Part shown: in pieces, positions 57,381-63,473 of the stretch
Position numbering within the stretch: the first letter of the stretch is position 1
Layout of the letters: every line of letters starts with the position of its first letter
From: a virus
Taxonomy: Duplodnaviria; Caudoviricetes
Strand: one strand, 5' to 3'
Virus record (IMG/VR): IMGVR_UViG_3300011008_000021
Coordinates: 1-64,000 of that record
DNA: 64,000 bases
Position numbers and translations under genes: made by a program
The notes under the pieces: model-generated
The model's input: only the letters and a program-made list of their open reading frames with translations
What the model was told of the DNA's origin: nothing
Databases searched by the model: none

Positions 57381-57475
57381 TTTTAAGAATCTATTTTCTT
57401 GTCCGTCATCATATATTTCTACGTTAAAAGTATTAGCTGTTAGAAACAGCTTGCAACCTAATGTCTTACAGGATT

Positions 57476-57508: not shown

Positions 57509-57542
57509 AAAAAAGAGGAGTTACAGGTAATGTAACTCCTCT
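57509..57542 (-). terminator. intrinsic terminator of the capsid transcript
   Basis: AGAGGAGTTACA-TTACC-TGTAACTCCTCT followed by a T run. Confidence 0.88.
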
Positions 57543-57558
57543 GAAAACATTAAGTTAA

Positions 57559-60500
57559 TCAGTCAGTAATCTCACCTGCTACAATAAGGTCTGAATTCAG
57601 AACCTTAAGATCGTACAGAGTTGACCAACCTTGTGATGTACCACCATCAGCATACTGAAGAAGCTGAGTAGGAACAATAGGCATGTAAGGTGCATACACA
57701 GCAACTGAACTCATTAAGTCGTCACCGTTAACACCAACTAAATATCTGTTTGCAGCAATTGCTGGTGAAACAAAGACCTTTAACCCATTGAGGGTACCTG
57801 CAAAATATGGACCGTTGATTGATCCAGTAGGAGCTGCGTTCCATCCATCAATAAATGTAAGGATAGGAATAATATTAGATGCAACTACCATATAGTTAGG
57901 AGCAACATTAATCTTTAATATGATTCGCTACATCATATTGGGAATTTTTATTCCCCACTTATTTTCATAAGTGATGAGACTATATCTTCATCTTTTCGGA
58001 TGTGACTTACTTCCACTTCGCTTGAAGTGTACTCCCTTTCGGGATAGTCGTTGGGGCTGAATCCCATTAGGATTCCTGCCTGCTGATTATCCAATCCTAC
58101 AACTTTTTAAACCATCATATATTCATTACTGATATATTGTGGTATGTAGGCTCTAAGGATTTTCCAGCATATCAAGTCATTTATTATTCAAACATGTTTC
58201 CATGTAAGCGAGACTTGTTTACCTAATTGTAAACTTGATTTATCAATATATTTGTTATATATTATGCTGCTAATAATAAATCAGTTAATCTCTTTGTCTT
58301 ATCGTAGATAAGTTGTCTTGCAATCTCAACTATCTCAGTAAATCCTGCATAGTGATCTCTCTTGCTAACACCAACAGGAAGTGTCTTGCTCCATGCAAGT
58401 GCGGTCTGTGCAGTTCCTGCTGTTTCATCAAGTAACTGAACTACTTCTGTATCAATTTCATATGAAAGCTGTCCAACTGCCTTCTCAGCTAACTGATCTC
58501 CAAGATCAAATCCATAATCAGTCTTAGCTTGGAATGCTGCCATTTGGCTTGCGTATCTTACGTTTATATCGTTTCCATATAAACTCTATATATTACTACA
58601 TAGGCGGGACTATATCATATTCTTAATTTCTTTTACCAAAACTAAGAATCCATGCACTTCGATTCCACTTAGAATCTACTCTACTTTCTTGTTCACTTAT
58701 GTCTTTCTCATAAGATATGATTTCGATAGTCTCTGAACTTTACTTTCATAATAGAAAGTCTTAGCTGCTGATTGTCCTATTAGCATGGCAATTCTAATAG
58801 GAGTTTCCAGCAATTCACATGGTTTTTCATAATTTATTTCATTAAACTCAATTTGGATAAATCACTTCATAATTTAAATTATTAAGAGTTGCATAATTTC
58901 TTTTTTGAACATCCCTTTTTGTCCAAACATCTATAATCATATTAGACCAATCTGTATTATCTTTCTTTAACTGCTCTAATAATTTTAAATCGTCTGAATT
59001 ATTTTCATCAAATGGATGTCCACCATGGGATGGGTGATAATTAACTTCTATAAATTTATCTTCTGACTTAATATAAAAATCACAATCAAAAGGGTATCTC
59101 TCATCAGAATATTGTCTAACAATATCTGACTCATCATACATTTCTAATAAACACTTGTATAATTCTTCTTCAGGTTTTGACTTATTAAAAGAATTATTCT
59201 TTTTCATTGTTTCAAAATGCTGATTCCAAATATCCTTATTCTTTAAAGGATTTGTTACACCATAATTCTTTAACAATGTCTTTGTATATTTATCTCTACT
59301 TTCAGGAACTAAATTAGGTGATTTTTGACCATATCTTTCCAACATAGTATTTTCATATTTCTGTTGAGCTTCTTCGGTCTTTTTAGAATCACTTATTTTC
59401 TTCCTTATCTCTGGACTTTGATTGTGTTCTTTATAACCATATCTTTCTAAACTTGTTTGTTGTGCTTTTTCATAATTATTATAATTAGCATCTCCATATC
59501 TATCAAGCTTAGTTTGTTTTACCTTTTCAACATTTGTTAAACTCTTTTTACCATATCGTTTCATCATGGTTGAATTACGAGCTTCTCTAAAATGTTTCTT
59601 TTGTTCATCGGTTAAATATCTTCTACCCATATTTACTCTCCTAATAGTAAAAATATATAAATGTAGTAATCTAAAGAATTTAGGACTTCTTTAAAAACAG
59701 TTTGCAACCTGCTGTCCTACATTATAATCATATTATAACACAATTATAATGATTTGTAAATTGAGATTTAATTTATAAAATTAAGCTACAGCTTTTAAGT
59801 CTTTATAGTAGACTGCGATTCTTCTGGCCTTTGCAATTAATGGAATGCTCTTCATTTCAGCCTTAAGCATTGGAAGATCATTTTGAGGAATTACAACATT
59901 ATCGTAAACATAAGCAACTTTAACAGTATCAGTAGCTCCAATAGCAGTACCAGTACCATTTGAAAGAGTTAATGTTTTTCCATCGGTTGCAACAGTAACT
60001 GATGCATCATCTGCAACAGGAACTGCAACTCCAGCAGATGTGGTTATAGAAGTAATTCTTGCTTTTGATGCTGTATCAGGTCCATTATAAACTGGGAACC
60101 AAGAAGCAGTAACAGCAGCATTGGCACCTGTGAATGATTCTACCACTCTTGCAGCAGTATAATTAGGATCAACATTTCCTAATTTAAATGGGCTGTTAAA
60201 GACATCGCCGTTAGTGGTTTCGCCCTTTGTAGACCCAGCCTGATATTCAATCAATCATGTTAATCATAAATATTCTTAATATATAACTTTATAATTTAAA
60301 TTATTTTCTTTAGCAACTCTTTGTTTTTCAACATCTCTCACTGTCCATGTTTGAATAGCATTTTGATAAAATTGAGATGTTTTAGCTTTTTCTTTCCACT
60401 CATTAAGTTGCTGAATACATTCTTCATCATCTGGATTAAATGGTTTACCACCATGTGTCCAATGAGCATTTAACTCTATAAATAAATCATCTTCTACAAT

Positions 60501-63473
60501 ATAGAAATCACAATAAAATGGATATCTATCCTTATCCTTGTAATTTCTTAATATTGTTTTATTAGAATAATCTTTTAATAATGATTCATATAATTCATTT
60601 TCAGGCTTAGATGTATTAAAAGAATTATTCTTTTTTCTTGTCAAATACTGTTTATTAGTTTTAATAATGAGTCTATCTTTAGGAAGGTGTTTACCTTTTA
60701 AAGAAATGGAATTAGATTCTCCAATTCTCCTTTTATGTTCCTCAGATAAGTGTTTGCCTTTATTATAACTCGTAGAACCATATCGTTCTATTCTTGTGTT
60801 ATTGGAATGTTCGGAATAACTTCTAACACGCTTATCCGTATCCTTGGTTAAACCTTTATTCCAAACACTGATCTCATTAGTAGAATATCTTTCTTTAAGT
60901 GTTTTACTTATTTTTTCTTTTACTTCTTTTGAAACAGATTTACCTTTATTTGAAGGACTTCTACCAATACGTTTTTTTCTGTTTTCTTCCTTGTGTTTTT
61001 CAGAAACACCTTTTATCCACCCTTCATTTAGATATCTCTGTAATTCATTTGGATAAATTCTTTTTTCCAAATCATCCTTATGAATAACTATTCTACCTTT
61101 TTGAGTATTTGAACATTTTTCTGATTTATTCATTTGTTGAATTCTCCATAAAGAATATATAATTTAAAATTATTACATTATAAGTTATGGCTTATAATGT
61201 TTGAGGTCATATATCAGTAATATCAAATTCTTAATATTACTATTAAGTTCAGACTATATCATATTCCTATATCGTGTTAACCTTTATAGGAATCCATGCA
61301 CTTCGGATATTCCATAATATCCTACTCTACTCACTTACCATATAAAGTATTTCTCTTTATAATCCGTTTTCGATAGTCGTTGAACCTTCCTATTGATTAA
61401 TCATATTATAATTAGTGAAATTCGTCAATAGGCTTGGCTTCTGATTGTCCTGCTGGCTAATACAGGATATTCCAGAAATTCACATGGTATTTTTTCATAT
61501 GCATTACTGCATACGCATACTGAATTTCAATATGTGACATATCCAGACATAGAACTCATCAATTATGTTACGAATATATCGTTTCCATATATTCTCATTA
61601 TATTACTATAATGTTCAGACTATATCATTATCCTATATTCTATTACCGTTTATAGGATACCACACATTTCGAAAATACTTATTTTCTACTCTACTCACTT
61701 ACCATATAAAGTATTTCTCTTTATAATCCGCTTTCGATAGTCGTTGAACCTTCTTCTTTTTAAAGAAGCTTGGCTGCTGATTGTCCTAAATACTATGTCA
61801 TATATATATAGGGTTTTCCAGCAATTAATGTGGTTTTACATATTGTTTAATTTATTTATCTATAATAAGTCCGTTTGGATATATAATTTTAAAATTTAAA
61901 TTATTGTTTCTAAAAGTTTGAAGTTTTTTTGGATCTATTTCGGTCCACCATTTATAGATATTCCAATATCTACTTCTTGGACCTTTCTGTTCAGCTTTAG
62001 ATCTAATTTGTTCTGCTTCTTTTATATGTTCTTCATTATTAGGATCAAAAGGTCTTCCATTATGTTCTATTGTTCCATTTACTTCAATAAATAAATCTTC
62101 TGAAGCAATATAGATATCACAATTATATGGATAACGAACATCTCTATATGGATGAATTACATCTTCTTCACCATATTCTTGTATCAACTCATTTATTAGA
62201 TCTTTTTCTACTTTTGATGAGTTGAAGCTACTATTTTTCTTTTTAGTAGAATATTCTTTTTGTTTTGCAAGTTCCCAATCTTTTACAAAACATTCATGTC
62301 CTTTTAGTTTATTGCTAGCAGACATCAAAGAAGCATTTGTTTCTTTAGTTAAGCCTTTATTCCAAGGTACATGACCCATCATGGATTGAGATTGCTTTAA
62401 TTTTCTCTCTTCACTTGCAGGTATTCCTTTATTCCAAGGTTCTTTTCCTTTTCGATAAAGACTTAATTTTTTAGAAATAGTTTCTAAACTATCATTTGTA
62501 TCCTTAGTTAACCCTTTGTTCCAAGAAACATAATTTCCTTTTTGTAATCTTGTTTCCTTTGTTGCTTGTCCATTAGCTTTAACTCTTTCATCTGTTTCAG
62601 CAGTTAAACCTTTATTCCAAGGATTAGATTTAAAGGTTCTTCCTGGATAAAAACCAAGCGGTATATCATCACCAGGTTTTAACTTGATAGTTCTAACTCC
62701 ATTAGTGAAAAATTTTATTTTATCCCCTTCATAAATATCTTCTATCAACTTAAATTTAAATTTCACAATAAATAAATTAATATATGTATCATTATATATT
62801 ACTACATAATGCCCCTGAGGTTAAGGGTGAACAATTACAAGATCGTTGGCAATTAAATTCGGAAGTGCGACATTTGTTAAATTTAAACAAAATTTCTTAA
62901 ACATTCCCATGTCTGCTCTCTGAGTAGCAGAAGAAGCATCAAATGCCTCGTTTAAGAAATCTTGAGTGTTCTTTAAGCAACGAGCCAGTGTAATTTTTCT
63001 ATTATTATCCATCTTTTCTCCAAGATGTGATTTTCCGTAGACTGACTCAGCAATTTGAATTCTCTTTTTATCAAATATGTTACGAATTAATCGTGTCCAT
63101 TAATTCTCTATATGTTTCCATATAGTTCAGACTATATCATATACCTCAATTGTTTTAACCTTTTAAGGTACCCCATCACTTCGAAAATACTATTTTCTAC
63201 TCTACTTTGTTATTCATATAAGTATTTCTCTTATATTATCATTTCGATAGTCGTTGAACCTTCCGTTCAAAGAACGGCTTGGCTGCTGATTATCCCTGGC
63301 TAAAGGATTTTCCAGCAATTCAATGGGTTTTATTAAACTAATGTTTATTTATTAATAACTAAATTTTTATATATTATTTCAAAATTTAAATTATTATCTC
63401 TAAATATTAGTTCCACATATTACTATGTGGAAGCTCAAAAAATTTAAGCTTCAACTAAATTCTGATTAGCCAT
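57559..63473 (-). CDS. major capsid protein (T4 gp23-like), 453 aa, six exons: 63473-63446, 63071-62824, 61559-61530, 60251-59805, 58549-58288, 57905-57559
   Basis: Exons sum to 1362 nt and join in one frame: LPNLIANDLVIVHP|MSSMSGYVTY|IEY, AKARRIAVYY|SQMAAF, LSYEIDTE, KR|FAPNYMV, VYAPYMP (gp23-like motifs). Confidence 0.92.
57906..58287 (-). mobile_element. group I intron 5 of the capsid gene (382 nt, no ORF)
   Basis: P1 GAGAU/GUCUC with U-G; core UGCUGGAAA, AAUCAGCAGG, CAACGACUA, AAGAUAUAGUCU; ends AUG (omega-G). Confidence 0.9.
58848..59630 (-). CDS. intron-encoded Vsr-like (EDxHD/PD-(D/E)XK) homing endonuclease with YG repeats
   Basis: Repeated T..E/KRYG units; SKPE..RYPFDCDFYI..FIEVNYHPSHG. 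Confidence 0.8.
   Translation of the reverse strand: MGRRYLTDEQKKHFREARNSTMMKRYGKKSLTNVEKVKQTKLDRYGDANYNNYEKAQQTSLERYGYKEHNQSPEIRKKISDSKKTEEAQQKYENTMLERYGQKSPNLVPESRDKYTKTLLKNYGVTNPLKNKDIWNQHFETMKKNNSFNKSKPEEELYKCLLEMYDESDIVRQYSDERYPFDCDFYIKSEDKFIEVNYHPSHGGHPFDENNSDDLKLLEQLKKDNTDWSNMIIDVWTKRDVQKRNYATLNNLNYEVIYPN
59732..59760 (-). promoter_or_regulatory. sigmaA-type promoter inside intron 4, upstream of the endonuclease ORF
   Basis: TTTACA, 17 nt, TGnTATAAT. Confidence 0.65.
60252..61529 (-). mobile_element. group I intron 3 of the capsid gene (1278 nt, ORF 3' of the core)
   Basis: P1 CAUAU/GUAUG; P4 covariant UUUCUG/CAGAAG; UUCAACGACUA; AUGAUAUAGUCU; ends UUG. Confidence 0.9.
60276..61133 (-). 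CDS. intron-encoded Vsr-like homing endonuclease with NUMOD3-like repeats
   Basis: NKGK..SEEHK repeats, WNKGLT; SKPE..RYPFYCDFYI..FIELNAHWTHG. Confidence 0.8.
   Translation of the reverse strand: MNKSEKCSNTQKGRIVIHKDDLEKRIYPNELQRYLNEGWIKGVSEKHKEENRKKRIGRSPSNKGKSVSKEVKEKISKTLKERYSTNEISVWNKGLTKDTDKRVRSYSEHSNNTRIERYGSTSYNKGKHLSEEHKRRIGESNSISLKGKHLPKDRLIIKTNKQYLTRKKNNSFNTSKPENELYESLLKDYSNKTILRNYKDKDRYPFYCDFYIVEDDLFIELNAHWTHGGKPFNPDDEECIQQLNEWKEKAKTSQFYQNAIQTWTVRDVEKQRVAKENNLNYKVIY
61560..62823 (-). mobile_element. group I intron 2 of the capsid gene (1264 nt, ORF 5' of the core)
   Basis: P1 CCCU/GGGG; AAUUGCUGGAAA, AAUCAGCAGCCAAG, UUCAACGACUA, AUGAUAUAGUCU; ends UUG. Confidence 0.9.
61852..62766 (-). 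CDS. intron-encoded Vsr-like homing endonuclease with WNKG repeats
   Basis: Four (P/S)WNKG(LT) repeats; SKVE..RYPYNCDIYI..FIEVNG...H. Confidence 0.8.
   Translation of the reverse strand: MKFKFKLIEDIYEGDKIKFFTNGVRTIKLKPGDDIPLGFYPGRTFKSNPWNKGLTAETDERVKANGQATKETRLQKGNYVSWNKGLTKDTNDSLETISKKLSLYRKGKEPWNKGIPASEERKLKQSQSMMGHVPWNKGLTKETNASLMSASNKLKGHECFVKDWELAKQKEYSTKKKNSSFNSSKVEKDLINELIQEYGEEDVIHPYRDVRYPYNCDIYIASEDLFIEVNGTIEHNGRPFDPNNEEHIKEAEQIRSKAEQKGPRSRYWNIYKWWTEIDPKKLQTFRNNNLNFKIIYPNGLIIDK
63072..63445 (-). mobile_element. group I intron 1 of the capsid gene (374 nt)
   Basis: P1 GAAGCUU/GAGCUUC with U-G; full P4/P7 core motifs; ends UUG. Confidence 0.9.
63345..63407 (-). pseudogene. 3'-terminal remnant of a deleted endonuclease ORF in intron 1
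   Basis: IFRDNNLNFEIIYKNLVINK* versus intron-2 ORF end TFRNNNLNFKIIYPNGLIIDK*. Confidence 0.75.

Follow-up and report, generated by a model that had tools for sequence, protein, structure and literature searches.

Five group I introns in the capsid gene of a probable rumen or gut myovirus, one of them probably ending in A

Introduction

How can a phage encode its major capsid protein when the reading frame is found only in short pieces scattered over several kilobases of DNA? This question is raised by the minus strand of IMGVR_UViG_3300011008_000021 (Duplodnaviria; Caudoviricetes), a 100,764-bp virus record of IMG/VR with an estimated completeness of 66%, the first 64 kb of which form the window analysed here (the whole stretch of 64,000 nucleotides, nt). 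An initial annotation of the window read the locus at 57559-63473 as a major capsid gene that group I introns interrupt five times, and the phage is indeed very probably a rumen or gut myovirus whose capsid gene carries five such introns, all mobile and members of one related family. Exon borders were read directly on the minus strand and the joins were tested by script, while related capsid loci were collected with exon 4 as a probe in IMG/VR, which yielded 14 loci; all loci compared are numbered with the prefix L. Parts of the locus, mostly small shares, are contained in sequencing runs of gut metagenomes (sheep, cattle, pig and others) or digester metagenomes.

The interrupted capsid gene

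Joining the six exons (Table 1) gives 1362 nt with 453 codons and a single terminal stop codon, which reproduces the coding sequence that had been proposed to extend over 5.9 kb from a start at 63473 to a stop at 57559, and confirms that removal of the five introns leaves one gp23-like frame. The spliced protein is 94% identical to the product of the uninterrupted homologue L008, with 0 gaps over residues 1-444, where the short L008 contig ends, and it aligns end to end with seven further uninterrupted homologues, among them the genes in L013, L015 and L018-L021, so that the comparison with intron-less homologues suggested at the outset agrees with the predicted splicing pattern. Both junction peptides named in the initial annotation, IVHPMSSMSGYVTYIEYQAGSTK and FAPNYMV, were recovered and are present in uninterrupted L008. 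At the nucleotide level the exons are colinear with L008 at junctions 1, 2, 3 and 5, and the changes are mostly synonymous, as seen from 83% nucleotide versus 94% amino-acid identity. The exons also differ from the introns in composition, with a guanine plus cytosine (G+C) content of 38.8% versus 28.1%.

Exon 6 alone matches the capsid family PF07068 with 40 bits (cut-off 24.4) as well as phrog_138 (“major head protein”), while on this family the uninterrupted homologues reach 96-108 bits, and T4 gp23 structures are matched by them with an E-value (E) of about 1e-6. A search of the genome with PF07068 gave 44.9 bits at the capsid locus, and neither a second match nor an intact capsid gene, the finding that had been named as speaking against the interpretation, was detected elsewhere in the record, which itself is about 66% complete. 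The alignments thus support a Gp23-family major capsid gene that is the only one detectable in the record.

Ribozyme cores and splice sites

The group I covariance model of Rfam (RF00028) has five minus-strand matches in the whole window (53.5-75.1 bits, gathering score 50, E 3e-17 to 9e-11), each of which covers model positions 1-253 of 253, so that none is truncated. The five predicted cores are therefore found where they had been placed, all above the gathering score, and the full 100,764-bp record holds no RF00028 match beyond these five in the capsid gene. The P7 strands GACUAU/AUAGUC are common to all five introns, and in all five Rfam alignments an insertion of 33-71 nt separates P7 from the P3' strand, at the place of the P7.1/P7.2 helices of subgroup IA, to which the introns may belong. 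Pairwise identity of the cores is 74-87%, but the RNA is AT-rich and the global alignment was permissive, so that the cores can be called clearly related only. Over short core stretches, introns 1-4 match those of Staphylococcus and Bacillus myoviruses with 95-100% identity (megablast), and a megablast search of the whole locus against 50,697 phage records returned only short core or endonuclease matches (35-240 nt) and no close relative.

By inspection, each of the five 5' exons ends in a U that faces a G of the guide sequence, and a P1 helix with the U.G pair, as predicted for every intron, is thus seen in 5/5 cases (Table 1). The terminal G is present in introns 1, 2, 3 and 5. P9.0 and P10 had also been predicted for each intron. 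A P9.0 of 2 bp directly before the last intron base is found in 10 of the 12 introns examined (AA/UU, AU/AU, AC/GU and GC/GC), and P10 pairs in register in 7 of 8 alleles of intron 4.

The 3' end of intron 4

Intron 4 probably ends in A58550 rather than in the near-universal G, a reading drawn from comparison of alleles. Eight further loci with the same intron at the same site were fetched via homologues of its endonuclease, and seven of them together with the window give both intron ends. In 9/9 alleles the 5' end has the P1 helix CUAU/GUAG, whose U.G pair follows ...UAU. Four alleles (L140, L145, L142 and L026) end in G and continue with an exon that starts with the Ser-Gln codons AGU/AGC/UCU/UCA CAA, giving V-Y-Y|S-Q or V-F-Y|S-Q, while the other four (the window, L024, L025 and L144) end in ...GCA, followed by AGC/AGU CAA/CAG. 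The P10 guide of the window is GCU (59792-59790), and in 7/8 alleles P10 is in register from the first exon base (AGC/GCU, AGU/ACU, AGC/GUU, UCUC/GAGA and a 5-bp helix in L140), the changes across alleles being compensatory. P9.0 comprises the pairs G58605-C58551 and C58604-G58552. In an alignment of the 3' halves, two columns part the alleles ending in A from those ending in G, namely the terminal base and the J7/9 base that pairs in P9.0, and once the 5' site is fixed by the U.G pair there is no frame-preserving 3' site that ends in G. Since frame, P1, P10 and P9.0 fit this border across eight alleles, A58550 is taken as the last nucleotide (omega-A), and the tryptic peptide IAVYYSQMAAFQAK would be the product of the exon 4-exon 5 junction. 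Such an end is biochemically awkward, because P7 has kept the G-C pair that binds guanosine.

Alternatively, intron 4 could be spliced at canonical U/G sites a few bases away, in which case Tyr251 would be substituted and no omega-A would exist. Two such borders, 59812|58556 (model A, giving ...AVYASQ...) and 59807|58551 (model B, giving ...AVYSSQ...), preserve both the frame and the length of 1362 nt, and they would agree with the unchanged P7 pair that binds the terminal G and with the view that this G is universal in group I introns (PMC8146996, which itself reports an exception). However, the aligned uninterrupted homologues (AVYYSQ or AIYYSQ) and the four alleles ending in G encode Y-Y-S-Q or F-Y-S-Q, P10 is in register only with an exon starting at 58549, and the 2-bp P9.0 stops directly before 58550. 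Furthermore, the tail after the last hairpin measures 12 nt if the intron ends at A58550, a length also seen in introns 1 and 2 and in three alleles out of the four that end in G. Although a P1 of GCAGU/GCUGU is possible for 59812|58556, it is broken by wobble changes of the exon in L024 and L025 without compensation, while with 59807|58551 the cleavage-site U would face another U in every allele. Both models were dropped after the allele comparison, and splicing at either canonical border is regarded as unlikely. A 6-bp P1 for model B, with the guide GGUAGA over the start codon of the open reading frame (ORF) of intron 4, was likewise set aside, its guide not being conserved in L024 and L025. 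A search of viral contigs with the pattern GATATAGTCCCGCC returned about 113 stretches, almost all of them unrelated coding DNA.

Intron-borne endonuclease genes

The ORFs of introns 2, 3 and 4 are paralogues with 31-38% identity that have a common C-terminal domain with 51 invariant positions. In an AlphaFold model of the intron-3 ORF, structural re-alignment of residues 173-285 gives Z 8.3 with the Vsr endonuclease and Z 6.4 with the catalytic domain of I-Bth0305I; Foldseek with the same model returned nothing at E ≤ 0.001, its values being only 0.36-1.2. The acidic and His positions D209, E220 and H227 do not vary among 32 homologues. The C-terminal nuclease domain has no detectable sequence match in PDB or Pfam, and a profile of the three endonucleases yielded only a chance ferritin match among PDB sequences. 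NUMOD3 (PF07460) scores 14.8 and 15.1 bits on the ORFs of introns 2 and 3, below the cut-off of 20.4, so that the repeats are called NUMOD3-like only; a precomputed PF07460 match is present in many close homologues. With moderate confidence, the ORFs are assigned to homing endonucleases that combine a Vsr-like PD-(D/E)XK nuclease with DNA-binding repeats of the NUMOD3 type. In its predicted fold, the C-terminal stretch of 113 residues resembles I-Bth0305I (PDB 3r3p) and Vsr (1cw0), whereas the N-terminal parts, unlike those of the two known enzymes, are NUMOD3/DUF7487-like repeats.

At least 850 homologues of the intron-3 ORF, all unnamed, were found in metagenomes, while the intron-4 endonuclease as a probe in IMG/VR gave a single distant match. 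The 3' part of the intron-3 endonuclease gene (60287-60525 of the window) has 74% DNA identity to Prevotella Lak megaphages, which suggests that the endonuclease family is common to very different gut phages. A conserved leader follows a -10-like TATAAT and has the form GUAGGACAG-(stem)-GUUGCAAA-(stem)-U-rich-GUCCUA. It lies at 59695-59709 (minus strand), upstream of the intron-4 endonuclease gene, and a variant is located at 57444-57458 (minus strand), just downstream of the capsid gene and before the next ORF; the leader is also found upstream of intron endonuclease genes in L024, L025, L026, L140 and L142. The exact 15-mer GGTTGCAA[AG]CTGTTT occurs twice in the window, a number reached by 4 of 100 shuffles, and the inner stem seems to covary among alleles (CAG/CUG versus AGG/CCU). 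Possibly, this element is a structured 5' leader that controls expression of the endonucleases.

Intron polymorphism among relatives

Contigs of sheep metagenome runs (one study) contain a close relative that is a few per cent diverged in the alignable pieces and differs at the DNA level in its set of introns. In this relative, 63070 is joined directly to 63445, so that exactly 374 nt are skipped and intron 1 is absent. Intron 2 is bridged, with VHPMSSMSGYVTY continuous, and intron 4 is bridged by GTC TAC TAT TCA CAG ATG (VYYSQM), while intron 3 is kept with about 97% identity. Presence and absence at exact borders among near-identical genomes is what would be expected of mobile introns. In the long P1 loop of intron 5, at 58244-58249, the relative has in addition an insert of about 864 nt that includes endonuclease-like sequence, which makes intron 5 of the window look like the empty form of an ORF-bearing intron; over 121 nt, the insert is the same as the 3' end of the endonuclease gene in intron 3 (60278-60398).

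Across the related loci, the number of Rfam group I matches is 0 in L008 and L012-L021, two in L009, three in L010, four in L011 and L024, and six in L145, with at least three to four in the partial loci L025, L026 and L140. The same insertion sites are occupied in the independent assemblies L024, L025, L026 and L140-L145, those of the window that relatives have in common lying after residues 92, 102, 251 and 339. Judged from alignment breaks, the clade has well over a dozen insertion sites, and its capsid gene is a general intron target. We consider it fairly probable, on balance, that a lineage of mobile phage introns ending in A persists in at least four diverged phages, within a gene that is essential and very strongly expressed, and that the capsid gene is an intron “sink” with well over a dozen sites, up to six ribozymes and 7-nt micro-exons. 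Such a micro-exon, AUACUAU, is flanked by two introns at L145:7400-8000 (ENA contig k141_1064868; the same as L141:900-1300). At L145:9080-10189 there are two copies of the sequence for the final 40 capsid residues, one directly continuing the exon before it and the other behind a sixth intron; exon co-conversion or a recent insertion may have left this trace.

Proposed expression and alternative explanations

From the cores, borders and polymorphism we infer self-splicing, on which head assembly would then depend, as well as endonuclease activity and homing. The capsid gene would be transcribed as a single precursor of about 5.9 kb, in which each ribozyme folds and excises itself by two transesterification steps, and ligation of the six exons (28, 248, 30, 447, 262 and 347 nt) would give a 1362-nt mRNA for a capsid protein of 453 amino acids (aa). 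The endonucleases of introns 2, 3 and 4 presumably cut intron-less capsid alleles of co-infecting relatives, upon which the introns are copied in. Homing into intron-less alleles is proposed as the reason why close relatives differ in their intron sets.

Several points weigh against this interpretation. None of the sequencing runs queried that hold the locus is an RNA run, and the P1 helices of introns 2 and 4 have 4 base pairs only. If the conserved protein is made, intron 4 lacks the terminal G, and slower exon ligation is expected. The assignment of the endonucleases draws on a middling fold Z-score and a sub-threshold NUMOD3 match. Finally, with a record that is about 66% complete, an intact capsid gene outside it is conceivable, and this incompleteness also leaves room for a decaying capsid pseudogene with endonuclease insertions that has lost splicing, the working gene lying in the missing third of the genome. 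Yet the six exons are open and in one frame, their alignment to an uninterrupted homologue (94% identity) is free of gaps and stops, the substitutions relative to L008 are mostly synonymous, the gene occupies the canonical position in the head module, and independent relatives retain introns at the same sites together with intact exons, all of which makes a pseudogene very improbable. An assembly artefact, in which strains or repeated intron copies have been stitched together, is just as improbable: the introns resemble one another, repeats may be collapsed or wrongly joined in metagenomic assembly, and contigs of the sheep runs do contain many cross-joints between intron copies, but the exon order is colinear with the homologues, nothing is duplicated or missing, and the same architecture with the same sites is found in independent assemblies of other studies (Logan, ENA, IMG/VR). 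A capsid gene with five mobile introns remains the preferred reading.

Features of the locus and its surroundings

Upstream of the capsid gene lies a prohead protease gene (511 aa), and beyond the protease a portal gene and a terminase-like ORF of 1072 aa are found; head-tail adaptor, sheath and tube genes are located downstream. The 1072-aa ORF beside the portal gene (L023:4468-7686; record 67967-71185, minus strand) has weak matches to terminase large subunits, helicases and HNH endonucleases, and could represent a terminase gene into which an HNH or intein-like element has been inserted in frame. Within a few kb of the head genes, an ORF of 326 aa (L023:9546-10526; record 73045-74025, minus strand) matches the phage reverse transcriptase phrog_1423 at E 1.9e-47 and may be part of a diversity-generating retroelement or of a defence-related element.

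Table 1. Coordinates of the interrupted capsid gene and associated features (positions in the window; RBS, ribosome-binding site; pLDDT, predicted local distance difference test)
Feature	Position	Strand	Description	Evidence
Major capsid gene	57559..63473	-	interrupted; ATG 63473-63471, stop 57561-57559	PF07068 on exon 6; tblastn to uninterrupted homologues
RBS of capsid gene	63490-63487	-	GAGG, upstream of exon 1
Exon 1	63446..63473	-	28 nt; MANQNLVEA and first base of a Tyr codon	alignment to L008 begins at residue 1
Intron 1	63072..63445	-	374 nt, without ORF, ends in G	core 63366-63108, Rfam 68.9 bits
P1 of intron 1			GAAGCUU/GAGCUUC, U.G at splice site
Exon 2	62824..63071	-	248 nt	spliced protein and nucleotide alignment to L008
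Intron 2	61560..62823	-	1264 nt, ends in G; endonuclease ORF upstream of core	core 61877-61596, Rfam 61.7 bits
P1 of intron 2			CCCU/GGGG
Intron-2 ORF	61852..62766	-	304 aa; NUMOD3-like repeats and Vsr-like nuclease domain	phrog_21964 “HNH endonuclease”, E 1.2e-5
Exon 3	61530..61559	-	30-nt mini-exon (MSSMSGYVTY) between two ribozymes	L008 alignment
Intron 3	60252..61529	-	1278 nt, ends in G; ORF downstream of P9	core 61539-61230, Rfam 74.1 bits
P1 of intron 3			CAUAU/GUAUG plus UGA/UCA
Intron-3 ORF	60276..61133	-	285 aa; putative homing endonuclease; RBS GGAG upstream	AlphaFold pLDDT 85
Exon 4	59805..60251	-	447 nt; 3' end ...GUC UAC UAU	allele comparison
Intron 4	58550..59804	-	1255 nt; last nucleotide A58550 (omega-A, probable)	core 58870-58586, Rfam 75.1 bits; eight alleles
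P1 of intron 4			CUAU (59808-59805)/GUAG (59789-59786)
Promoter-like site in intron 4	59732..59760	-	upstream of ORF; TTTACA, 17-nt spacer, TG-n-TATAAT	11/12 positions, consensus match only
Intron-4 ORF	58848..59630	-	260 aa; DUF7487 N-terminal part; RBS AGGAG	PF24308 E 8.5e-13; phrog_3339 “homing endonuclease”
Exon 5	58288..58549	-	262 nt; starts AGC CAA AUG	allele comparison
Intron 5	57906..58287	-	382 nt, without ORF, ends in G	core 58230-57956, Rfam 53.5 bits
P1 of intron 5			GAGAU/GUCUC (58214-58210), 72-nt P1 loop
Exon 6	57559..57905	-	347 nt including stop codon	PF07068, E 4.4e-10
Terminator-like hairpin	57514..57542	-	12 pairs and T run, directly 3' of stop codon

Comparison with known systems

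Group I introns in structural and packaging genes of phages are already documented, and the capsid gene described here is a further example. The introns of Staphylococcus phage Twort belong to subgroup IA2 and show exon skipping. Three group I introns are known from orf142 of this phage (Landthaler & Shub 1999, as cited in PMC6669764), and among related Herelleviridae, Staphylococcus phage 110 (OQ448195.2) has two adjacent Intron_gpI features after a virion structural protein gene. As in the present locus, a single late or structural gene of a myovirus with low G+C thus contains several group I introns, but there are three (or two) of them and they lie outside the major capsid gene, which here holds five. 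Terminase genes with group I introns are found in phages LL-H and Moonbeam (PMC4299906). A parallel in gene function is the crAss-like Zeta-group cMAG OLRF01000054, the major capsid gene of which is in five fragments (Yutin et al. 2021, PMC7886860). In both cases the capsid gene of a gut-metagenome phage is split by insertions that carry endonuclease domains of the group I intron type, and gene callers find fragments only; however, OLRF01000054 belongs to an unrelated phage order, its capsid protein is of a different sequence family, and three of its four interruptions were recognised through protein domains, whereas the five interruptions of the present Gp23-family myovirus gene each have an Rfam-scored core and nucleotide-exact borders. 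Jug (jumbo gut) phages carry on average 18.5 group I introns of about 206 nt per genome, in terL, nrdD and the DNA polymerase gene among others, and for 37 of 76 predicted introns splicing is supported by metatranscriptomes (PMC12880540). Like the phage studied here they are gut phages with group I introns in essential genes, but their introns are spread over the genome, whereas all five of the 100-kb record lie in one gene.

In view of these cases and of the six introns in L145, the count of five in the initial annotation stands, while its description as extreme was overstated. What distinguishes the locus is the presence of five scored ribozymes in one Gp23-family gene, the very small size of internal exons, the fact that this gene holds every intron of the 100-kb record, and the likely intron ending in A. 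For the latter there is a natural precedent in the group I intron ND5-717 of sea-anemone mitochondria, which ends in A and is still removed to give ligated mRNA (PMC8146996). This intron is organellar, vertically inherited, obligatory and probably dependent on host factors, whereas intron 4 would be a phage intron that is mobile, encodes an endonuclease itself and has close sister alleles ending in G at the same site.

Implications

If confirmed, the omega-A intron would be of interest to ribozyme biochemists, and intron 4 would offer a natural system for exon ligation without omega-G in which the sister alleles ending in G serve as built-in controls. For the annotation of phage genomes, the capsid gene of this whole clade of rumen and gut myoviruses will be overlooked by gene callers or reported in pieces, which distorts marker-gene surveys and taxonomy. 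As far as can be judged from sequence, the most abundant late protein of a phage may depend on five ribozyme reactions (six in a relative) that join exons as short as 28-30 nt (7 nt in a relative). The presence and absence of introns among near-identical phages of one habitat points to active homing, and endonuclease-mediated competition between co-infecting phages, as has been shown for PhiPA3 (PMC11620839), may take place here as well.

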